Shown: positions 6,809 to 39,891 of the stretch, one piece after another
Layout: each line of letters begins with the position of its first letter
Position numbering within the stretch: the first letter of the stretch is position 1
NCBI GenBank assembly: GCA_000004985.1
Contig: GG738852.1
Source: Naegleria gruberi
Lineage: Eukaryota
Strand: one strand, 5' to 3'
DNA: 64,000 nt
The notes under the pieces: generated by a model
Seen by the model: the letters and a program-made list of their open reading frames with translations, nothing else
Databases searched by the model: none
Told to the model about the DNA's origin: nothing
Made by a program: the position numbers and the translations under genes

Positions 6809-9800
6809 ATGAATAAACGACTAGAGGAATTTTCTCCTAAGCCAGTTGTTCGGAGCAGTAGAACAGCTGCTGCATCATCAAGTAATAGTAATATGGATGC
6901 TGATGATGATCAATTAATGGTAATTGATGAAAAAATCCTTCAAGAATTTAAACAATTTCACTCATCAGAAATGATTGAATATAATTCTAAAAAGTTTATT
7001 GAAAAGTATTGGAGCAATACACAAGAGAAGAACGAAAAGACCATGTATTTGGTAACCTTTTTACGTGATGTGATATATAAAGTACCAGAACATGAAGAAA
7101 AGGAATTACAAGTTTCGGAGAGGACACAAACAAACAGACAAAGATTAGAAGATTTGTTGGGAGGCTTGACCGGAGGAAATACTCCTACCATTAACAATTT
7201 TATGCAGCTATTGTCTGGATTGAGAGATCAACCAATGCCCATCACTACTTATTCTGAAGTTATAGTAAATCCTGATGAAACGGTAGAGATTGGATCCGAT
7301 TGGTTGTCTTGCTTGTTATGTTATGGACAAATGCAAAAGGAAGCACAGTACAAGAGAATATTAACAACAAATAGAGGAGTTTGTGGTAAAACTTGGACAG
7401 TTGGACAAATTGCATTCAAATGTAAAACTTGTCAGATGGATCCAACTTGTGCTATTTGTGAAGAATGTTTCAAGAAGGGAAATCATGAAGGACATGATTA
7501 TTCCATGACTAGAAATTCTAATGGTATGTGTGATTGTGGTGATGTTGAAGCTTGGAGTGTATCAGGTTTTTGTTGTGATCATACTGGAAGAAGTGATCCT
7601 CTGGCCCACTTGACCCCTGATTATTTGGAACTTTTGAAAGCCATCACCAAAGGATTATTCTCTAAAGAGGGTGTCATTAATAATTACATTCGAGAAATTA
7701 CAACCAAGTACAAATCGTTAAAAGATGAAGGTTCCAGAAAAAAGTCATTCCAACTGCAAACTCTCTACCAAAATTTCAAACAAGTTCTAGAAACTGTTTT
7801 GGAAAATTTTGATTCATCACCTTGTCTCAAAAAGTTAGCATATTTGGAACTTAAAGAGTTGAAAAAGGGATCGACGTCTCTAGATGAAATATTACTGAGC
7901 ATACCATCAATGACTCAACCAATCAAGTATTTGTATTCTGATATCTTTATGTCTTTCATAACAGACATTGATTTTAAAACATTTTTCTCGGAGAGATTTA
8001 TTGCTCATTACTCCATAATTATTGAAGACTACAAGGAATATTTGAAAACAAAAAATAAGGAAAATCGTGAAGATGATGAGAGAAAGTCAGTCCACATCTC
8101 TTCTCTTTCTGTTCAGCTATTAACTACTCCAACCGTAGCTGCCCACTTGATAGAAAATTGCAACTTGGTCTCAGTTCTTTTAGATACGTTAATAGAAACT
8201 GTAGAGGATGAATCTATAATGGATGAGACTAGAAATAATAGATTAGTTTATAATCCTGAAGCCAATTCTAAAAAAGTAGAAGCTCTGTATCATATCATTT
8301 TTGATATTAACTATTGTGTTATGCATCAAAAATTCAGTGATCATGTTTTACTCAATGAAGATTGCTACCACAAATTTTTAACATTCCTCTCCTATCTTCA
8401 AGCAACAATTGATATTAATAGAAAAGATAGCGATGACTCTCAATGGTATACGGCCTTCAATTTGGAGATGGGTACTTTACCTAAAATCATTAGATCCATT
8501 ACCAGTTTTATCGAAGGATATGCTAATGATTCAAAATATAAGACTATCCTCCGTCAATTAATTATGAATCTCAGCAAGATCATTTTGGATGATAACTTTG
8601 AAATTGAAACAGATGGTACTGTAAAAGTTAATCCATTCAATATTCCAATTACATACAACTTACCATTGCACAGGTTTGCAACAACCATATTCAAACAATT
8701 AATGTCAATATTCCCAACTGTTTCTCTCAAGTCATCTATTTCTGAAATTTTAGAACAAACATCACCAAACTCGCCACAAGTAACAAATCAATTCTTAATA
8801 CAGTTACTTGAACAGCCACTCAAAATTTTTGTTACTTCAGCCCAAATTACTGCTAGACTTTGGCAAAGAAATCATGAACATAGTAAGTAATTTAAATTTG
8901 AAAATCTTAAGATCAATTTTTCCAGTTCTTGAGCAATCTTATAATTATAATTCTGAAGCTTTTGGTGATTACACCTATTGTAATGACATATTCTTGATTC
9001 AAATTATTAGTGGACTCATGGATAATCATGATTTAATATTTAGAACACTTATCAAAAAGTTCAACAACTCCTTGGATGAATTGAAATTGTTTACCAAGGA
9101 AAAGCTAAAAGAAGATGAAGATAAAAGATCCATTTTGGAAGAAGAGTTTGCAAGACTCTTAGTTTGCATAAGTACCAACAGAGTATTTATGGATTCAATG
9201 AGCAACTTTGATATTTGTAGAAAATATGTTCTTCATTACTTGTTTACTGAGGAAAAATGCAAATTTTCAGATATTGTTTCGGCAGTTCCAAAATCCTTCA
9301 GAGCAGCTGGTATTGATCTCAAAGTTATTGTAAACGAAGTTGCTAATTTCCACAAGCCAAAAGGATCTCACGATCAGGGTTATTTTACTGTAAAATCAAA
9401 TTATTGGGATGAATTGGATCCATACTTTATTGGTATGAGCTCTCAATTATTTTATCAAGCTACAGAACAATACAAGACACAAACAGGGCTAAAACAACCT
9501 CCACCAATTTGTCTGGAAAAGCCAATATTTGCTGCCAATCAACAACTTGAAAGTGGGCTTACAGGATTAATGCTCAGTAATTCACTTTACAAGATAATTT
9601 TCTTTATCATGTATAGAACGATAATTTGGAGAAAGGATTCTAGCCAAGAACAGTTACCAGCTTTTGTTCTTCATTTACTCTTACTCTCACTGAATCATGT
9701 TCCTACTGGTACAGCAGAAGTTTCCCAAATAACTGTTCCTTCTAAACAATCCTTGCTCTCACCAATTAATAGTTATTTGGACATTCCATTTAAAGATGGT

Positions 9801-12080
9801 GAATCTCCAGTCAAGCTCATTCTTCGACCAATAGAAGATAGTGAAGGCAATGAATATTCTATCATTAGAATGCTTTTCGAATTTGGAAATCAAGGTGAAC
9901 TTGTTAATAAGATTTTCAATAGATTGATTGAATTGAACGAAGCTTGTGATAAAATTGTTGTTGAGGCTAGATTAAAGAAAGAAAACACCAGTAATAAGGA
10001 AGAGAAGGAAGCCAAGAAGAAGAGAGCTTTAGCCAATCGTCAAAAATTGTTGGAAAAGATGAATGCCAGTCAGAAAATGTTTGCCCAGAGCTTGGAAGAA
10101 GAGGAAGACACTGTTGACGATTCCGACAAATTGAAATGTGCCCTCTGTCATGACCACAAGTCACCAGAAGGAAACGAGTCTCTTTCTCTCCTCTGCCAAA
10201 TTGTTAACAACCCATTCCCTCAAATCACTAGAAACAAGGAAAATGTATCCCTCTTTGGAAATATTAGAAACAAACCAATTGTTGATATTGGAGAATTAAC
10301 AGAAGCATTTGCTGATGTCAATAAGGAACACAATGTTCAAATTAATTTCTGCTCTCATGCTTGCCATGCCGATTGTTTTGATAGATACTATACAAATCTT
10401 GTTCAAGAAGAATCTAGACGAAGAAGATTTAAAGGTTTTGGTCAAATAGATTTGGAAAGTATGGAAATACTCTGTCCAATTTGTTCTAGAGTGGCAAATT
10501 GTCTCTGCCCAATTGTTTCAAATCATGCCAATTTGCTCCAATCATCCAATTCTGTATCAACAGAATTACCATCACTTGAAACAATCGCTTCATTCATGAA
10601 GGATATTAAGGTTAAGGACAAGGCAGAAGATGTGAAAACTTCCACTACTCTTTCAACTATTTGTGAGAAAATTATTAATAAGAAGAAAGAAGACTTGGGT
10701 GATACTCTCGATCCAATGCCAGTTGATATTGAACCTTTTGAGTTGATTGATTCGGCATACTTTTCCAATACGTTTAGTTCGGAGATCGCTGTAGAGGAAA
10801 TACTTCAAAGAAGTCAACCACATTTACAAGTATTGCCTGAAGCAGTCAGAAAATCCCTCAGCCACGTATTTGGTCTTCTCATTTCATTCCAACAACTTAA
10901 TGAAAAGAATAGAGGAAAGACTCTTCAAGAAATTAATGCAGTAGTTGGTTCAATGATGGGCTTGAAATCCTATGCAAATTTGAGCCTTTATGATGAAGGA
11001 TTTAGAGAAAGAAAGATGTATCTTCCATTCTTGAGTGGAGACATGTTTACACTATTTGTGAGGTTAACAACCTTGCTTTTCTCATCTGAAAGAAAGATGG
11101 ATTCAGCAATGTTCAGAGATTTGTTAATGGTATTCTATACATCACATATCATTCAGATAATTATGCAATGCAACTTGAGACTTCAACAATCATTTAGTAC
11201 AGGCATTCCATCTATTGATAAGGAAATCTCCACAATAGAGAATATTCCAATATTTGAAAGATTTGAACTCAGAACCCTTGAAACTGACATTATTTTATCT
11301 GAAGATGAAATTGCTAAAATGTCCTGCGGTTTCTTAAGAAGAGTTGCTCTGTATTATTCGTTACTTTTCCCAGAAGAAGAAATTCCAACCTCAAGCTCTG
11401 AACATGTAAATTTGACGAATTATCTCCACCTTCCAACAGTAGATAACCTTTTGGTAATGATTAGAGAATCTAACCCTTATTCTGAGTTGATAACTAAATG
11501 GATTGATCAAGTTAAATTGTCCATGCAAAGTCTTTCAAAAGCCCTCAATGAAGAAACACAAGATGAAGATGATGAAGATTTGTATGCTAGTCAAGCTGAT
11601 TCTTTGATACCTTGCTTTGCAACTCCAAAACCTTTCAGCTTTATTGAGCTACCAAGATTATACGAAGATCTCATTCTCAAGCATAACAATGAAAGATGCC
11701 CACTCTGTTCCAAGAAATTGGAAAATCCTGCCATTTGTTTAATCACTGGAGAATTAGTATGGCTGAAGCAATGCACATGTGAGAAGCACATTTGTGGTAA
11801 GCTTACAAGATATACCAGGGAGAAATATTCTGGATTTGGACTCTTCCTTGTTATTAAATCATCGAGAATTTTGCTTATGCACGAAAGTAGATCAGGAATT
11901 TTGCATTCCCCATACCTAGATAGTCATGGAGAAGAAGATAAGAACCTTAAAAGAGGTGTTCCTTTATTCTTCCACAAAGAAAGACTCGATGAAAACATTC
12001 AAAAGTTAGGAAGAATGAATTGGGATCATGATACCATCATTTTGGAAAAATGTTCTAATTTGCAAACTCATGTTTTGTAA
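6809..12080 (+). CDS. UBR1/UBR2-type E3 ubiquitin ligase (N-recognin), 2 exons
   Basis: ORFs 6809..8890 and 8808..12080 join in frame via intron 8883..8925 (gtaagt..ccag, 43 nt, phase 1). UBR-box zinc finger CGKTWTVGQIAFKCKTCQMDPTCAICEECFKKGNHEGHDYSMTRNSNGMCDCGDVEAWSVSGFCCDH. RING-like region CALCHD...CSHACHADCFDRY...CPICSR. Cys-rich C-terminal UBR-type tail (CPLCSKKLENPAICLITGE...). Confidence 0.9.
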
Positions 12081-14122: not shown

Positions 14123-15298
14123 TCAATCACGATTATGGTGTGTTTTATGGTGTTGATGATGGTCAAGTACTTTTTCATTCATGGATTGGAAATTCATTTG
14201 GATGGAATGAAGGAGAGCTAGTTGTGCTCTTGTTCTGATGAGATTGTGTTGTGGATAGGTAGTTTTGTAATAGGTATCACCGTTGATGTAATCTGTTAGA
14301 AATCTCAATGCCTGCTCAAAGGTAATATACTTGGCACTGAAAGCTAGATATTCAATTTCGATATCTGTGAGGAATTTGTAACCCTCAGAGAGATATCCAT
14401 TGGTAAAGCTTTCGAATATGTCCATTTTGAGATGAATGTTTTGAGTATTTGGATCATCTTCTGTAGATGTGTTACAATACGAACGAATGGCATCTCCAAA
14501 ATCATTCAATACTGTACTGCACATTACAGTGTCAAGGTCAATTAAGCAACATGCCTTATTGGTCTCAGTATCGAATAAAATATTACTTAATTTCGTATCG
14601 TTATGAGTAATTCTCAGTGGAATTTTGTTACTTTCTACCAATTCCCAAAAATCAATCATTTCCTTTCTATAATTTTCCACAATTCCAATTTCATCTTTCA
14701 CTTCCTCCAATCTGTTAACAATATTCCTTTCAATGGCTTGATCAAATTGTTCAAATCTGAATTTAATATTGTGAAATCCAGGTAACACATCCTTAATAAT
14801 GCATTCTCTATTTTCATAGGTGATATTTCCATGGCTCTCAGAAACCAAATCAGAAAGCATATTCTGGAATTTTCCAATCATTTTACCTCCTTCAAACGCC
14901 AACTCTTCCGAATCAGCCTTTTCATGAGTAGTGGTATTTTCTATAAACTTAAACATGGTCCAATATTGAGAGTTTTCCGAATCTTGATTCTCAATCAATT
15001 TGTAAAATAATTTTCCATCATTGATGGTAGGAACAATAGAAAGAGTCTCCCTATCCGGATTTCCTCCCAATTTTGCAATTTTCCCTCTCAAATGTTCAAT
15101 CACGAGGGAAATATTATTCATCATGAGTTGAATGTTTTTAAATATTTTGTGATTCTTTCGTTGGAGAATGTATTTATTGTTCGGAGAGGGAATGTTAAGT
15201 TCTACCAGATAGGTATCATTGATGAGTCCACTCGGAATTGGTTCGATATTTATATTTCCAAGATTTGGACCTAAAAATTGGCTTACGATTTCATTCAT
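14123..15298 (-). CDS. APH-fold phosphotransferase, N-acetylhexosamine 1-kinase (NahK)-like, bacterial-type
   Basis: Single intronless ORF with an A/T-run before the ATG. Motifs IPSGLINDTYLV, ILQRKNHKIF, ITHNDTKLSNILFD (catalytic HxD....N), CLIDLDTVM, FGDAIRSY and RFLTDYINGDTYYK match, as I recall it, the bacterial NahK/LnpB-type kinase family. Confidence 0.7.
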   Translation of the reverse strand: MNEIVSQFLGPNLGNINIEPIPSGLINDTYLVELNIPSPNNKYILQRKNHKIFKNIQLMMNNISLVIEHLRGKIAKLGGNPDRETLSIVPTINDGKLFYKLIENQDSENSQYWTMFKFIENTTTHEKADSEELAFEGGKMIGKFQNMLSDLVSESHGNITYENRECIIKDVLPGFHNIKFRFEQFDQAIERNIVNRLEEVKDEIGIVENYRKEMIDFWELVESNKIPLRITHNDTKLSNILFDTETNKACCLIDLDTVMCSTVLNDFGDAIRSYCNTSTEDDPNTQNIHLKMDIFESFTNGYLSEGYKFLTDIEIEYLAFSAKYITFEQALRFLTDYINGDTYYKTTYPQHNLIRTRAQLALLHSIQMNFQSMNEKVLDHHQHHKTHHNRD

Positions 15299-15340
15299 TT
15301 TTTTTTGTTGAAATACTTTACAATGACTATTATTTAATAA

Positions 15341-16516
15341 TTATTCTTGATCATCTTCTGCTTGATAATTTTCATCATTAGCATCTTCCTCTTCGTAATA
15401 TTCATCATCTTCATCAATATCTTCCTCATAATCCTCATCATCATCTTCCTCATCTTCTTCCTCATCATCGTCATCATCCATGTAAAGTGAAATTGGTCTT
15501 CTAATTCCAATGAGAACTGTTTTCATTTGAGTGACAAAGGCAACATTATTGGCCTCATCTCCCTCAATGCAGAATGCAAGTGTGAAATCATCCGTCTTGT
15601 CTGAGATAAATTGATTCGTTTCAAAGGTATTTCTTTGTAAAATCAAATTGATAGAGTGTTTCTTTTCCTGCTCTGAAACATATTCCTGTAATTTGCTGAC
15701 ATAGAGACAAATTTCAATTATCTTTTCTTTGAGTTCCTTTTTAATGTTTGCATGATTGGCTTCAATACTGTCCATGAAACTTAAATATGATCTCGATGTC
15801 AAGTACCAAATCATTTTTGGAGTTGAAGTTGTAACATCATGTTTCGAATAGGAAGCACTCATACCAAGATTTGGAATATTTTGCTTTGGAATAATTGAAA
15901 AACTCAATGTAAATGTTGAGCTTTGTCCCATTCCCAAATCTTTTGTAACTTGTTGACCTTTAAATGTTGAGAGAAATCTGTTTTGAAACCAATTCACATG
16001 TTTGACTTGTTCCAAAGGATAATACCTCGATGCCAATTCAAATGCCTTGCTCACTCTCATCATTTGAATGATTTCTCTCAATGTAAGAAATGGAAATATG
16101 TGATTATTAATAATTTTGAATGGAATTTGCTTTTTACAAATAGAATACTTTAACTTTTCAAGATCGGACCTGAAAGATTCATGATTTTGTGTTTTCTTTC
16201 TTTCCTTGATGAGTGATGATCTCATCTGACGAGCAAATTCTTCAATTTTTCCAATATTTAATTTTCTGTCTTCTGATGATGAGGTTTCGTCTGTTGGATT
16301 TTCGTTTTCTTGTTGAGGAGGATTGGCTGCCTCTTCATTATCGTCATCATTGGTTGATTCGTCATCTCGGGATTTAGTTTTCAACATGTCGTTGAATAGT
16401 TTCTCCTTCTCATGATATTCCTTTAGTCTTTGTTCAGTTTCTCCTAACAAATCACTATCGAATAAATTTTCAAAATTACCCAGAAGAGAAAGGTTCTTAA
16501 ATTGTTGTGGAAGCAT
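15341..16516 (-). CDS. Hypothetical protein with an F-box-like segment and an extremely acidic C-terminal tail
   Basis: Single ORF with a genuine ATG after an A-run. Internal motif IINNHIFPFLTLREIIQMMRVSKAF. The C-terminus DDDDDEEEDEEDDDEDYEEDIDEDDEYYEEED is low complexity. Confidence 0.55.
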   Translation of the reverse strand: MLPQQFKNLSLLGNFENLFDSDLLGETEQRLKEYHEKEKLFNDMLKTKSRDDESTNDDDNEEAANPPQQENENPTDETSSSEDRKLNIGKIEEFARQMRSSLIKERKKTQNHESFRSDLEKLKYSICKKQIPFKIINNHIFPFLTLREIIQMMRVSKAFELASRYYPLEQVKHVNWFQNRFLSTFKGQQVTKDLGMGQSSTFTLSFSIIPKQNIPNLGMSASYSKHDVTTSTPKMIWYLTSRSYLSFMDSIEANHANIKKELKEKIIEICLYVSKLQEYVSEQEKKHSINLILQRNTFETNQFISDKTDDFTLAFCIEGDEANNVAFVTQMKTVLIGIRRPISLYMDDDDDEEEDEEDDDEDYEEDIDEDDEYYEEEDANDENYQAEDDQE

Positions 16517-26930: not shown

Positions 26931-27620
26931 TTAATAAAAACAAGATTGAGAACAAGTAATTATACTAATGAATATTAAAGCTCAAAGACTGTTTCACTTT
27001 TATTGATGAAGAATAAGTATGAAAAAATATTCAACTTATATTAAGTTTACAATAAAAACAAATCCATTCTTTACTTCGCTCAGAATTAGACATTATATCC
27101 TCAAATACTACTGCTCTCACTAATTCTTAATCTTAAACAATCTGATTCATCATTTGAGAGATATATCATTATACTCTCGTAAAATACAAGTTGAAAAAAT
27201 TGTAACACTTTAATTATGAGTTAATCAATAATTCAAGAAACCATTGTCTACATATGGAAGAACTAGTGTATTATTATAACAAAATTATTAAAATATTTTA
27301 AAAATTATCCTCAAAAAATAAGTCTCAACATCATGTCTTCATCATTATTAAGACAAAAAAAACCACTACTCCACCCTAAATCGAAAATATCTGTAAGTAT
27401 TGTATTTGCTTAATAAATTGGCTGGATGGTTGAATGAAAAGAGGATAAAATGTATACAATTTGTGTAGTAGAAAAATAAATTCACTGTTTTCAAAATCTG
27501 TTGTCCCATTGTTTTTACAAAAAAATTGATTATTTCAAAAGATTCATTCAAACTATCAATATGAAATACCAAATCAATATTACACATTTTTTTTAATTTT
27601 AAAAAAAAAACAAAATTATC

Positions 27621-29960
27621 ATGTTATCATTTACTTCTATTCAATTACAAAAGAATTTTAATTCCATCCAAGAAAATTTAATGACAAGGAATATACTATT
27701 AACTCCTGGAGAGACGATTCAAATTAATTCTCAAGTATTTTCAGTGAATTTATATTCATCATCGGATCAAAATAATTTAAATGATGAATTTCAAAAATCA
27801 ATTAGTGGACAAGTAGAAAACACAGAATTTATTCAATGTAAAGATCATTTGTTTACAATTGATAATTTATTACACGCTGATGAGTGTAGAGAAATTTTAC
27901 GCATGGAAGATTCCATTTACTTTACACCAATTTCGTCCGAATATCCTGAAGAGTATAGAAATAGCAAACGAATTGTTTATAATGATAAAGAACTTTCACA
28001 GAGATTATGGCGACGATTGAAAAAGTTTCTAGTTGATTGCAATTTCATGAAACCGTATGGTTTAGACACGGATGGATATTGGATTCCAATTGGTGTGAAT
28101 GAATGTTTGAGATTGAGTAAATATGAACCAGGGAATTATTTCAAACCTCACACAGATGGTCAATTTCTCAGAAATGATAATGAGAGAAGTATTTATACTT
28201 TACTAATCTATTTGAACGATGATTTTAAAGGAGGAGAAACCGAATTCTTACAAAGAGTAGATCCAACAGAGGAGTCTATCACCAAATTCAAACATATTTG
28301 TGCAATTAATCCAAGAATGGGATCTGCTGCAATATTTAATCATGAATTGTATCATCAGGGATGTATGGTCACTTCAGGGATCAAGTATATTTTGAGAACT
28401 GAGATAATGTTCAAGAGAATTGATTCAACAGAACAATTGGTGAATAAGAAGAATGATTTGCTTCACAATCAAATTATGAATCTCTTGAAAACAAGTGATG
28501 ATCTAGAAAAGAAAGGTGAAGTGATGGAATCTACCTATTACTATAGAAAAGCACAAGAGCTGTTAATTCAATATGGACATTCCACCTCATTATTGCTGGT
28601 ACCTACCTTTTCCAAGTCAAAAATCAGTTCCGAAGATTATTCTCTGAAAAGTACATTTTCTCAATTACCTGATGAGCTACTCATTCACATTTTCAAATAT
28701 TTGATGGATTGGGAAATTTGCCAACTCATTCTTCCACTCGATAGGTATTTCAATTATATTGGCAGAGACTTACAATTATGGGAATGGATGTATATGAACA
28801 AATGGGGAAATTCTATCACAAATTTATTGAAACAATTTAATGCAAGAAATACTGAGGAACTAAGAGAATTCAATTCACAAGACAATACGAGCTCACTTGA
28901 GGAAACACCAGCTGAGGAACAAGATTGGTTTCATATCTATATTATGAAACGTTATTTTGAAAAGGAATTTGAGCCAGTCTTTATTGATTATGGAAGTAAC
29001 CTATATGCAAACACCTATTTTTCATCAATTGATGGTCCTGTTCAAACTACTTTAACTAAAGTTCTTAGACCTCCAGCCTCTCAGTAAGTATTTCTATAGT
29101 TCATCTAGTTGATGACCATTATTTCAGCTTTTCACTTCCAAGATTTTCTTCTTATGGATTAATGGGAGATAATATTGATAGAGGACGTACTATAGATATG
29201 TTTGATGGTAATGGATTTAAAAAGCATATTCAAGTATTCACCTTTTTAATATACAAGAAAATGAAAAAGAGTTGTCAACGAAATCCACTTGTTGTCAGCT
29301 TGAATTCTAGAGCAATGGTTGACTTTGCAAAGGTCAAGGAAAGTATTTTGAATTTTTTGGTAAGTAGTATTGAAAATTCAACTATTAAATAATGTGAAAT
29401 AGTTCAGAATTCGTATTCCAGCCGTTTGCATTCTTCCAAGATGTTATCTATTGTCAATTTATTATAATCTTCCAACTTGCATAGTAGTGGATATTGGCAA
29501 ATATGATATTTATGTTCATACAGTTATTCAACATGATAAGGATCAAATAGGTACATTACATGCTGAATTTGATATTTATGGATCAAGTATCAACTTGTTC
29601 GAAACAGCTCAATCTACTGAAGAAAAAATCAAGTACATTGAAAATTGTGAAATTACTAAAGCCATTAATCAATTATTAGATCAGCATCCAAAAGAACTGA
29701 GAGCAGAATTGTTGGATAATATTATTTTCTCTGGAAATCTTGTGGAAATGGAATCATTATCAGACGTTCAACATGAAAGGAATCAAATTCTTAACATGTT
29801 CAATTCACCACATTCCACCTATCGAGTGAAACATCAAACGAGTGGTGAGGAGGCCATTCAGTCAGCCATTAATTTCTCAAAACTTCCAAACTTTAAAGAT
29901 TATTGCTCTTTCTGGTTTGATTGTGAAAAGATTGTTGAGTCAAAAGACACATTTATTTAA
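27621..29960 (+). CDS. Fusion protein: prolyl-4-hydroxylase-like 2OG-Fe(II) oxygenase, F-box and divergent actin-fold (ARP-like) domain (3 exons)
   Basis: Exons 27621..29083, 29128..29359 and 29403..29960 join in frame through introns 29084..29127 (44 nt) and 29360..29402 (43 nt).
- Oxygenase core: LRLSKYEPGNYFKPHTDGQF (HxD)...YTLLIYLNDDFKGGETEF...HELYHQG...KYILRTEIMF.
- F-box: LPDELLIHIFKYLMDWEICQLI.
- Actin-like C-terminus: VFIDYGSNLYANTYF (phosphate-1 DxGS), NPLVVSLNSRAMVDFAKVKESILNFLFRIRIPAVCILPRCYLLSIYYNLPTCIVVDIGKYDIYVHTVI (phosphate-2 DxG), collinear with actin. Confidence 0.75.
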
Positions 29961-30138: not shown

Positions 30139-31540
30139 ATGTCTCAACTCATGGTTCGAAGCTATTCATTCCTCCTGTTGATGATGCTCTTGAGTGCAGT
30201 ATTGATGATGTTCATCTCAGCAGCATCACCAATGAATGCTCAATCCACCAGAGCATCCAATGTTCTTTCATTATTGAATGAAAAGAAGGAACAATTAGAG
30301 AAGGTAAATAATGGCTTGTCGGAAACGAGCTTGTTGATGATTGCAAGCAAGAGGGAACAATCTTCCCCTCTCTACACTGCCTACAGTGAGGAAAAGAATA
30401 GAATTTATAATGTATTGGTAGCAACAAAGGCAGAATTGGAATATGAAGTTCAACTTCCTTCAAAAATTATACAATTCATCGATCAATGAATCAACAACCT
30501 CAACAACAAGTGAAGCAGATTTGAAAAAGCAGATGAAACTTGAGCAAGAAGCTGCTGCTGTCAAGAAAGTAGAACAAGAAAGAAAATTGAAAGAGGAACA
30601 GGAAAAGAAGATTAAGGAAGAACAAGAAAAGAAACTGAAATTAGAACAAGAAGCTACTGTTGTTGCTGCCAAGAAAGCAGAACAAGAAAAGAAGATTAAG
30701 GAAGAACAAGAGAGAAAACTCAAAGCTGCTGAAGAAGAAGAAAGAAAGTTGAAAGAAGAAGCTGCTAAAAAAGCTGAACAAGAGAAAAAACTGAAAGAAG
30801 AACAAGAAAAGAAATTGAAATTAGAACAAGAAGCTGCTGCTGTCAAGAAAGCAGAACAAGAAAGAATTCAAAAGGAAGAGCAAGCGAGAAAAGCACTCGA
30901 ACTTGAAAGAAAGGCAGAACAAGAAAGAAAGGCCAAGGAAGAAAAAAGAATCCAAGAAGAAAGAGATAGATTAATCCCAACTATTGGTGAATTGGTCGAT
31001 TCTGATTTATTGACACCTTCTCAATCTGAAAGATTTATGAAAGAAATCATGAAAGGAGTCAACCAACAATTACCTCACAGAATTTGGAAAGCCAAGAAGC
31101 ACGGCTCATCAATTGCTAATTTCCATGCTACATGTGATAACATGGGACCAACCATTGTGTTGGCCAAGACTAGAAATGGAGCTGTATTTGGAGCCTATTC
31201 AAAGATTTCATATTCCCTATCAGGTGATTATGTTTCTGATCCAGCTGCTTTTATGTTTAGTTTGATTTCGGCTGAGGGAGAACAAAGATTTGTCAAGTTG
31301 ACCCAAACACCACAAATTGTTGATGGAAAACAAACTTATCCAACTTCAAAGATTCATAACGCAAATCATTTGATTACTTTTGGAGGTGGTTATGACTTGC
31401 TCATATCAGACAATACTGTTAGCTTGAGTTCTTCCCTTGTTTGTCATACTTATTGTGCTCCACAAGTTACAAATCCAAAGACTTACCTTGCTGGTGAAAG
31501 AACATTTATGATTGACGATTTTGAAGTTTATAGAGTTTAA
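30139..31540 (+). CDS. TLDc-domain protein with a long charged coiled-coil repeat; possible signal-anchor first exon
   Basis: The main ORF 30443..31540 ends in a TLDc domain (HRIWKAKKHGSSIANFHATCDNMGPTIVLAKTRNGAVFGAYS...PAAFMFSL...FGGGYDLLISDN). That frame is open from 30422, directly after an AG. ORF 30139.. (MSQLMVRSYSFLLLMMLLSAVLMMFISAAS, ATG after an A-rich context) reaches a phase-0 GTAAAT donor at 30304. A tentative 118-nt intron 30304..30421 would therefore join the two in frame. Confidence 0.65.
30540..30960 (+). repeat. Degenerate in-frame coding repeat (K/E/Q-rich coiled coil) inside the TLDc gene
   Basis: Reiterated KLKEEQEKK(I/L)K(L)EQEAAAVKKAEQE(R/K)K units. The same DNA gives the spurious S/C/F-rich antisense ORF 30460..30846. 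Confidence 0.7.
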
Positions 31541-37881: not shown

Positions 37882-39891
37882 ATGTTATCACAAACTGCTG
37901 CTACTATCAGCACACCCTCCGAAGAACCGTCATCAAATTCTTCTTCTGCTTGTACAAGTGGTGGTTGTGGTGGTGCAACTTTGAAATATAACTTCCAAAA
38001 ACCTAAAGATGAAAGCCTTCCGACTTGTTGTCTCTTCATTACCAATCTTCCATCACTTGGAGAAACATTGTCATCAAAGGAAGAAAATCGTAAAATTTAT
38101 CAAGATTGGTTACATGAAGAATTATCGGAAAATGTTCAAGAGATTGAAATTGAAGCCATTCTTGCACATGAACAAAAATTGAATAAGAAAAAGAAGGATA
38201 AATTGGAAAAGAAGAAAGAATTGGAAGGAGGTGTTGTTGAGCATCCTACCATGCAATTATATGCAGTTTTTGGAAGTGATGATGACTCTGTAAAGGTAAA
38301 GAGTTATCTTTCGGAAAAGTATAGAAGTATGCACATTTCATTTGCTGAACTTGCTGCTGAATCAAAGGAACAACGTAAGAAGAAACATGTTAAAGGATGG
38401 AATATTGATTGTACTTCATCTACTGATCATGTTTCAATTCCTGGATTGTATGTGATTGAAAATTTCATTACAGAAGAGGAAGAAGCTAAAATTATGGAAC
38501 AAGTGGAACCTAAGAATTGGGTTATTGAATTACAAAGACGTGTTCAACATTATGGATTTAAATTTGATTATGATATTAGATCTATTGATTTTAATACTCA
38601 AGTTGAACCAATTCCAGAATATACCACTAATATTATGAATAGAATGAAAGAAGCAATGAAAAAGAAAAAGGAAGAAAATGATTCAACTATTATGAGTGAT
38701 GAATTTATTTCTACTTTTGATTTTGAGACATACAATCCAGATCAATTGACCATTAATGAATATCAACCTGGACAAGGAATTAGACCGCATATTGATGTTC
38801 ACACTCCATTCAATGATGGTCTATTCATTGTTTCTATGCTCGGTAGTGCTGTCATGTACTTTTCTAAATGTGTAGGAGAGGAGGTTGTTGAAAAGAAGTA
38901 TGTCGATCTTCCAAGAAGGTCATTACTTATCCTCGTTGGAGAAGCAAGGTATTTGTGGAGACACGCCATTATGTGTAGAGAACTCGATAGAGTGAATGGA
39001 AAAATCAGAAAGAGACAACGAAGAGTTTCATTGACCATCAGATCAGTTAGAAAGGAAGGATTGTGCACATGCAAGTATACTGATGTTTGTGACTCTCAAC
39101 AAAATAATGAAATTGCTCACAATCTTCCATATTCTCAACAATTGGGAACTACCAATCTAGAAATTGAATACGTTCAAAAGACCTACAATCAAATTGCCTC
39201 TCATTGGGATAAAACAAGACATACACCATGGCCTAGAGTTCACGAATATATTAAGAGTCTATCTGACTATACATTAATTGGAGACATTGGATGTGGAAAG
39301 TAAGTAGTTTATTTCTAAAATGTTGTTGGATATAATAATAATTCAAATAATAGTGGAAAGTATATTAACCTGAATCCAAAATGTATTTGGGTAGCAACTG
39401 ATAGAAGTGAAAAATTATGTGAAATTTGTGTTGAGAAGGGATATGATGTCTCAGTTTCAGATGCTCTCAATCTTCCTTACAAGTCCAACCTTTTCGATGT
39501 CACTCTCAATATTGCCGTTCTCCATCACATTAGCTCTGTTGCCAGAAGAATCAGATTACTAAAGGAATTGGTTAGAGTTACGAGACCAGGAGGTGAAATT
39601 TTAATCTATGCCTGGAGTTATGAGCAAGAAAATTCATCCAAGAGAAAGTTCCAAAGTCAAGATGTGTTTGTACCTTGGAAACTCCAAGCTAAATACTTGA
39701 ATGGTGAGGATGATCAACCATCTCCTGCACTTATTGAAGAAAATGAAGTTACCATCAAGAGATATTGTCACGTTTACAGAAAAGGAGAATTGGATGAGTT
39801 GGTGACAACTAAGGTTAAGGGAGTGGATATTTTGGATTCTTACTTTGATGTTGGAAATTGGTGTTTATTGTTACGTAAGCACAGCAACTAA
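37882..39891 (+). CDS. ALKBH8: ALKBH8-like tRNA wobble-uridine modifying enzyme (RRM-like, AlkB 2OG oxygenase and Trm9-type methyltransferase), 2 exons
   Basis: ORFs 37882..39303 and 39568..39891 join in frame via intron 39300..39353 (54 nt, phase 2). AlkB core: LTINEYQPGQGIRPHIDVHTPF (HxD)...LLILVGEARYLWRHAI...RRVSLTIRSV. SAM motif I, IGDIGCG|NGKY, is split by the intron. Methyltransferase motifs VLHHISS..RR and LVRVTRPGGEILIYAW follow. Confidence 0.85.

Follow-up and report, generated by a model that had tools for sequence, protein, structure and literature searches.

What kind of protein is encoded at positions 27621 to 29960 of a 64,000-nucleotide (nt) stretch of contig GG738852.1 from Naegleria gruberi (assembly GCA_000004985.1), and what might such a protein do in the cell? 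Hereinafter, the window means this whole stretch (about 33% GC); coordinates are those of the window, and all the parts of the gene lie on the plus strand (+). A preliminary description of the locus had proposed an unusual fusion of three parts: (i) an oxygenase dependent on 2-oxoglutarate (2OG) and Fe(II), similar to prolyl 4-hydroxylases (P4Hs); (ii) an F-box; and (iii) a divergent actin-fold domain. As read from the sequence, one three-exon gene encodes all three parts. It belongs to a conserved, uncharacterised family, of which the window copy stands at the degenerate end. Regarding its function, we give about an even chance to the reading of a dioxygenase docked on Skp1, whose actin-fold module would pick partners and in which hydroxylation would be coupled to ubiquitylation by a Skp1-Cul1-F-box (SCF) ligase.

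Evidence for a Single Gene

The gene model comprises three exons: (i) exon 1 (27621-29083), an ATG-initiated open reading frame (ORF) that encodes amino acids (aa) 1-487 and 2 nt of codon 488; (ii) exon 2 (29128-29359), which completes H488 and adds 77 codons; and (iii) exon 3 (29403-29960), which encodes aa 566-750 followed by the TAA stop. Once joined, they amount to 2253 nt in frame and yield a protein of 750 aa. The start codon (27621) is the first ATG past an in-frame TAA located 7 codons upstream (27600-27602), and the relative P0001 likewise begins with ML. Exon 1 holds the oxygenase domain, the helical linker that follows it, the F-box and the start of the actin-like domain (~55 aa). 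The exons are separated by two short introns: intron 1 (29084-29127; 44 nt, GTAAGT...TTTCAG, donor CA/GTAAGT, phase 2) and intron 2 (29360-29402; 43 nt, GTAAGT...AATAG).

The junctions 29083^29128 and 29359^29403, already put forward in the preliminary description, are supported by in-frame splicing and by the conservation of intron positions in other loci. The position and phase 2 of intron 1 are common to L001 and L002 (both from metagenome ERZ929261) and to the N. lovaniensis locus L003, while the position of intron 2 is common to L001 and N. lovaniensis; L002 lacks intron 2. In L001, a relative with 63% identity and introns at both positions, coding similarity restarts right at the acceptors. 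In the annotated gene of N. lovaniensis, exon 1 ends with CA/GTAGGT at the homologous His codon, and is followed by an exon 2 of 77 aa and then by exon 3. The gene models annotated in N. lovaniensis and N. fowleri span 95-96% of the query protein, and the exon 3 product aligns with the C-termini of the relatives P0003 and P0004.

The alternative is that two genes have been joined by mistake: a 488-aa P4H-F-box protein ending at the TAA in the supposed donor and an actin-like gene starting from ATG 29162 (the first in-frame ATG of exon 2 lies 12 codons inside it). In its favour, the exon 1 ORF closes exactly at CAG/TAA; if intron 1 is left unspliced, an in-frame TAA comes immediately and the product has 488 aa; and the ORF-based predictions of relatives end at the same point. 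The ORF-only predictions P0001 and P0005 end at the intron 1 donor, as does the N. gruberi model P0002, because GTAAGT supplies an in-frame TAA. Nevertheless, the last part of exon 1 already encodes the first strand and the phosphate-1 loop of the actin fold: the actin-like domain starts at aa ~435 (DWFHIYIMKRYFEKEFEPVFIDYGSN), ~55 residues before the exon ends, and, in consequence, exon 1 alone would correspond to a broken domain. Furthermore, GT...AG introns with conserved position and phase occur at three other loci, where the coding sequence is conserved right from the acceptor onwards. Finally, intron-free ORFs derived from Physarum transcripts hold the three domains in one reading frame, i.e., 2OG (135-221), F-box-like (302-339) and Actin (from 423, E 9e-36). 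The two-gene alternative is, then, very unlikely, and we give it next to no weight.

A Prolyl 4-Hydroxylase-Like Oxygenase

The oxygenase domain (aa ~21-268; 27681-28424) was delimited by means of Pfam, AlphaFold2 (AF2) and Foldseek. Pfam 2OG-FeII_Oxy_3 (PF13640) matches aa 164-257 with E 2.2e-11 and 45 bits, well above its gathering threshold (GA) of 27. The motifs in which an HxD...H triad and a basic residue had been recognised are located at aa 175-182 (KPHTDGQF), 242-247 (ELYHQG) and 255-264 (KYILRTEIMF). They provide the catalytic residues (28149-28385), namely H177 (28149-28151), D179 (28155-28157), H245 (28353-28355) and the 2OG-binding K255 (28383-28385), all of which align with the iron and 2OG ligands of the Bacillus anthracis P4H (3itq). 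H177, D179 and H245 show no substitution among 12 relatives, nor among 60 distant ones, and K255 shows few or none; some 60 further positions of the domain do not vary in close relatives. The AF2 model of the exon 1 protein (aa 1-487) contains a confident double-stranded beta-helix, with a predicted local distance difference test score (pLDDT) of mostly ~77-96 over aa 21-266 and a dip near aa 50-65. A Pfam score above GA, conserved ligands and the AF2 fold thus agree with the claim of a 2OG oxygenase: the domain is P4H-like and its active-site ligands are intact. As far as sequence and model allow, the oxygenase is probably enzymatically active.

Among known structures, Foldseek found 312 matches in the PDB at E <= 1e-3, of which the best 50 are all 2OG oxygenases of the P4H, PHD, PiuC and OGFOD1 kind: PiuC (E 6e-10), an algal P4H (5e-9), PBCV-1 vCPH (8e-9), the Pseudomonas putida P4H (1e-8), the B. 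anthracis P4H (8e-8), Dictyostelium PhyA (6t8m; 2.2e-7, rank 22), OGFOD1 (3e-7) and PHD2 (1e-6). At the sequence level, a phmmer search of the PDB returned only prolyl 4-hydroxylases, i.e., the B. anthracis P4H (E 0.0025) and PBCV-1 vCPH, with no match to PhyA, and there is no Pfam match to JmjC or Cupin_8 in the protein at E <= 10. The kinship with the Skp1 prolyl hydroxylase implied by the preliminary description is not supported, since PhyA ranks 22nd in Foldseek (E 2e-7) behind others at 6e-10 to 1e-8. Orthology to the Skp1 hydroxylase (PhyA/PHD) was likewise rejected, as PiuC and the algal, viral and bacterial P4Hs match better in Foldseek.

With the compared enzymes (CrP4H, vCPH, bacterial P4H, PhyA/PHD2 and PiuC), the domain has in common the double-stranded beta-helix, the HxD...H motif and a Lys ten residues past the distal His. 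But the structure-aligned identity amounts to just 13-21% (Foldseek), orthology to any characterised subfamily could not be shown, and the family has motifs of its own, such as EYPxxYRNSxR and ERSIYTLLIYLN. As a separate observation, Pfam Pox_C4_C10 (poxvirus C4/C10) matches the oxygenase domain, in the region of window aa ~160-260, in 4 of the 9 close relatives and in 18 of the 60 wider ones (best E 1.4e-6), a hint that the P4H subfamily of the fusion is related to the poxvirus C4/C10 proteins.

From the F-Box to the Actin Fold

The oxygenase domain is followed by a helical hairpin linker (aa ~276-326; 28446-28598), defined by AF2 and by conservation. Its helices (276-297 and 301-317) are predicted with a pLDDT of ~87-90, and its conserved residues are S292, E296, G299, Y308, Q312, L315 and G319. 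Then comes the F-box (aa ~346-395, LPDELLIHIFKYL...LW; 28656-28805), delimited by Pfam, family matches and AF2. The segment LPDELLIHIFKYL corresponds to aa 349-361 and has an LPxE-type start (L349-P-D-E352), with W387 downstream. Pfam F-box-like is matched by all 9 close relatives (E <= 0.1; best E 6e-9) and by 42 of 60 wider relatives (E <= 0.01; best E 3.8e-15), and AF2 places helices at 351-358, 363-370, 375-381 and 384-395, the first three (pLDDT 58-77) forming the expected bundle of ~45 aa. The F-box is, in short, a feature of the whole family, and its earlier recognition in this protein is sustained by the family-wide matches and the predicted helices; this copy alone is sub-threshold, with the scores given below.

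The third part is a divergent domain of the actin/actin-related protein (Arp) fold (aa ~435-750; 28923-29957), interrupted by both introns and identified through a profile, Pfam matches in relatives and the predicted fold of a homologue. When a C-terminal profile of 5 sequences was compared with the PDB, 15 of 15 matches were to actin, Arp4, Arp10/11 or crenactin, in collinear segments (best E 3e-4). Pfam Actin matches 3 of the 5 relatives in this C-terminal set, and the C-terminal family profile ties the window protein to its paralogues and orthologues with E 1e-30 to 1e-9. In other members, Pfam Actin is matched far more strongly: Physarum P0027 (E 9e-36, 123.8 bits), P0040 (8e-28, 97.6 bits), Dracoamoeba P0060 (1e-24), P0020 (6e-21), N. 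fowleri P0016 (2e-17) and Willaertia P0012 (3e-17, 62.7 bits). To P0027, P0040 and P0012, the family profile connects the window sequence with E 1e-30 to 3e-29. The fold was predicted for the C-terminus of the N. lovaniensis homologue P0003, standing in for the window protein; its second lobe is confident (pLDDT 70-91), and a Foldseek search with this model gave 422 PDB matches at E <= 1e-3, the best 50 of which are all actin or Arp.

Individual residues were mapped on a beta-actin reference aligned with 21 family members. A comparison of the C-terminal profile with the single beta-actin by hhalign fell in the expected register (actin 90-158) with a probability of 6.7% and E 0.0055, and serves for residue mapping only. 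By this mapping, D456-Y-G458-S-N (28986-29000) is equivalent to the phosphate-1 loop D11-N-G-S-G of actin, D595-I-G597-K-Y (29490-29504) to the phosphate-2 loop D154-S-G-D-G, and S675-G-N677 (29730-29738) to S300-G-G302, with the second Gly lost. Further motif pairs are RNPLVVSL with EHPVLLTE of actin, and IPAVCILPR with TPAMYVAIQ. The nucleotide-site residues D456, G458, S459, D595, G597 and G676 are kept, and R578, at the position of actin Q137, does not vary among the closest homologues within this clade. Profile, motif alignment and the second lobe of the homologue model thus bear out what had been claimed for this part, i.e., collinearity with actin/Arps from the end of exon 1 through exons 2 and 3, including both DxG loops. 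The collinear motifs common to actin, Arp4 and Arp10/11 are the DxG phosphate-1 loop, HPLL, PAxxxx, the DxG phosphate-2 loop and xSG.

This genuine actin-family domain is degenerating in this lineage. The distance from D11 to D154 is nearly kept (139 aa vs 143 in actin), whereas that from D154 to G301 is 81 aa instead of 147, and subdomain 4 is therefore strongly reduced (~66 residues shorter). In contrast to actin and the Arps, the domain is, besides, fused to other domains and has lost residues of the nucleotide site, which are listed below; judging by these residues, it is probably no longer a nucleotide hydrolase/ATPase, and this copy would be expected to bind nucleotide weakly, if at all. 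In the N. fowleri and N. lovaniensis orthologues, even the DxG glycines are lost (DMRT, EWDD). In the metagenomic locus L002 (3021-3632 of that sequence), the actin-like C-terminus has ~210 aa and is devoid of the LLxNIIxxGN region, which is a further stage of domain erosion.

A Family Shared by Three Lineages

The nearest database relatives are Naegleria proteins, and the best named match is from N. gruberi (49-55% identity). Together with the GC content and the short GTAAGT...AG introns, they mark the window as nuclear DNA of a heterolobosean amoeba. Of 1.84 billion representatives searched exhaustively with a profile, 5583 proteins matched at E <= 1e-3, 225 of them at E <= 1e-30. In the best 60 long matches, Pfam 2OG-FeII_Oxy_3 is found in all 60, F-box-like in 42 and Actin in 34; other profile matches have the same oxygenase subfamily fused to Ank, TPR, WWE, WW, NADAR or MIT. 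A word-indexed homologue search with the C-terminal 319 aa gave P0001 as its sole match.

The order 2OG, F-box, Actin is strict across the family, and roughly 35 relatives carry all three domains. The named three-domain members belong to the following groups: (i) Heterolobosea, with Willaertia magna, two paralogues in N. fowleri and at least four in N. lovaniensis; (ii) Amoebozoa, with Physarum among the Myxogastria, the dictyostelids Dictyostelium discoideum, D. cf. discoideum, D. firmibasis, D. citrinum, D. purpureum, Polysphondylium, Tieghemostelium, Cavenderia and Acytostelium, and also Arcella, Dracoamoeba, Soliformovum and Pyxidicula; and (iii) chytrid fungi, with Nowakowskiella and Rhizophlyctis. 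The fusion is thus conserved over three deeply separated eukaryotic lineages. In D. cf. discoideum, P0169 (ACTFIZ_002477) and P0059 (ACTFIZ_002478) have consecutive locus tags on one contig, which indicates a tandem pair of three-domain genes.

For none of the members does public annotation go beyond hypothetical, F-box or Fe2OG domain-containing protein. Searches of the literature gave no description of the P4H-F-box-actin architecture, and the family is mentioned neither in the Dictyostelium actinome paper (PMC2441452) nor in the Dictyostelium F-box/Skp1 interactome paper and its supplement (PMC9485057). The suggestion that the architecture is undescribed is consistent with this silence; on the other hand, it is not confined to this genome, but is that of a conserved family in Heterolobosea, Amoebozoa and chytrids.

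Two database models call for comment. The N. gruberi model P0002 (576 aa) reads into intron 1, is devoid of the actin-like exons and looks wrong. The D. purpureum model P0046 (DICPUDRAFT_152270, 2127 aa) looks over-extended: its three-domain part ends at ~aa 776 and is seemingly followed by another gene.

What the Fusion Might Do

F-box proteins with a 2OG dioxygenase of their own are rare and informative, as illustrated by KDM2A/B, which act in chromatin, and by JcdI, which acts in oxygen sensing in a protist. Animal KDM2A/B (FBXL11/10) are F-box proteins that carry a JmjC 2OG dioxygenase, while in the animal PHD-VHL system an O2-dependent prolyl hydroxylase is coupled to the substrate receptor of a cullin-RING ligase (CRL), through two proteins and on CRL2. 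To our knowledge, an actin-fold domain has not been reported as the partner domain of an F-box protein. In Dictyostelium, JcdI/Fbxo13 has an F-box and a JmjC dioxygenase, binds Skp1 via the F-box, and shows a physiological O2 dependence (PMC9485057). The protein described here shares with JcdI and KDM2 the presence of a 2OG/Fe(II) dioxygenase and an F-box in one polypeptide, but its oxygenase is of the P4H type (PF13640), not JmjC, and lies N-terminal to the F-box, and its third domain is an actin fold instead of LRR, CXXC or PHD; the comparison is, consequently, one of functional analogy only. This is a second, independent F-box-dioxygenase fusion, here of the prolyl-hydroxylase type. Unlike PHD-VHL, it is a single polypeptide, predicted to act on CRL1, where a similar coupling might exist by analogy.

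By the reading that we favour, the F-box would dock the protein on Skp1 and hence on Cul1-Rbx1; the actin-fold module would bind partners or substrates, the obvious candidates being actin, Arps and actin-binding proteins; and the dioxygenase would hydroxylate the recruited protein while consuming O2 and 2-oxoglutarate. A single polypeptide could, in this manner, couple O2-dependent hydroxylation to SCF ubiquitylation. The preliminary description had spoken of an SCF-tethered hydroxylase or an actin-fold substrate adaptor, a suggestion that is reasonable as a hypothesis. As D. discoideum has orthologues (among them ACTFIR_000488 and its neighbour), two of which are adjacent in one strain, and methods for the Skp1 interactome already exist, the hypothesis that links oxygen, SCF and an actin-like partner is testable there.

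Several points weigh against this favoured reading. No transcript, interaction or activity data were found for the protein or for family members. This copy of the F-box is below the Pfam GA, both for F-box-like (20 bits vs 24.3, E 5.7e-4) and for F-box (17.6 vs 20.5, E 3.5e-3), and so is the window C-terminus when compared alone with Pfam Actin (PF00022; E 0.0026-0.019, 14-16.8 bits vs 27). In the model of the P0003 C-terminus, the first lobe (residues 1-118) has a pLDDT below 50. The nucleotide-site residues G15, Q137, D157, G158 and G302 of actin are replaced by N460, R578, K598, Y599 and N677, respectively, and, given these replacements, the domain may behave unlike an Arp. Lastly, the F-box of JcdI is dispensable for the O2 phenotype (PMC9485057), and therefore docking on Skp1 need not imply a function as substrate receptor.

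This last point leads to a possible, if somewhat doubtful, explanation in which the F-box is a regulatory tether that governs stability, solubility or location via Skp1/SCF, and the targets of the enzyme, chosen by the actin-like domain, are not ubiquitylated. The domain facts on which it rests are the same as those of the favoured reading; moreover, the F-box of JcdI mediates Skp1 binding, the effect of its overexpression on O2 sensing needed catalysis and not the F-box, and JcdI levels varied with the modification state of Skp1 (PMC9485057). What speaks against a mere tether is the strict order 2OG, F-box, Actin, as substrate receptors usually carry their protein-binding domain on the C-terminal side of the F-box. 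The tethered hydroxylase could also act in cis on the core of its own SCF complex, i.e., on Skp1 or Cul1, in a pathway analogous to that of PhyA and Skp1 or replacing it. In this respect, a cytoplasmic P4H is known to hydroxylate Skp1 on proline in both Dictyostelium and Toxoplasma (PMC9485057), and the oxygenase domain is P4H-like. We nonetheless hold this to be quite unlikely: the domain is no nearer to PhyA than to other P4Hs in the structural comparison and has no match to it in the phmmer search described above; dictyostelids carry both PhyA and the fusion family, and therefore the fusion is not a replacement of PhyA; and the actin-like domain would be left without a role.

A further alternative is a scaffold that is degenerating or lacks catalysis, i.e., a pseudo-enzyme joined to a pseudo-Arp, without hydroxylase activity. 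Erosion of the actin-like domain is evident in this lineage, and the C-terminus of L002 is still shorter. But all the iron and 2OG ligands, together with the other ~60 invariant oxygenase positions mentioned above, are maintained among close relatives, and the reading frame is intact across the three exons, which makes such a scaffold decidedly improbable. A pseudogene, considered as well, was rejected in view of the intact frame and catalytic residues.

The favoured reading has, in turn, a bolder version, rather unlikely in our opinion, in which the protein would act on the actin cytoskeleton as a self-contained device for both hydroxylation and ubiquitylation. Through its actin-fold domain, it would assemble together with actin or Arp complexes; their hydroxylation by the P4H would scale with O2 and 2-oxoglutarate, and the F-box would bring the SCF ligase to them. 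The named members of the family all come from lineages that are amoeboid or have amoeboid zoospores (Heterolobosea, Amoebozoa and chytrids). If true, this would represent a direct oxygen or metabolic input into the actin turnover of crawling eukaryotes.

Other Observations in the Window

About 230 nt upstream of the gene start, a short ATG-initiated stretch (27334-27393, +; MSSSLLRQKKPLLHPKSKIS) ends at GTAAGT; it could be due to chance or be a small exon of something else. The neighbouring genes (alpha/beta hydrolase, RhoGEF, MFS, TLDc and Vta1) showed no functional link to the fusion gene. Two adjacent 391-aa ORFs at 14123-16516, considered as possible tandem duplicates, are unrelated to each other.

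At 6809-12080 (+), two overlapping ORFs with zf-UBR, UBR1 winged helix and PRT6_C look like one gene for an N-recognin E3 ligase of the UBR1/PRT6 type, probably with a short intron or a frame change near 8808-8890. A second 2OG oxygenase, unrelated to the fusion, is encoded by a 473-aa ORF at 37882-39303 (+; Pfam 2OG-FeII_Oxy_2, AlkB-like, E 1e-12). The next gene downstream of the fusion (30139-31540, +) encodes a TLDc-domain protein (E 1.5e-21), whose N-terminal half is highly repetitive and rich in Glu and Lys (EQEKKLKEEQ...); this gene has a possible upstream exon from 30139, ~180 nt past the stop codon of the fusion gene.

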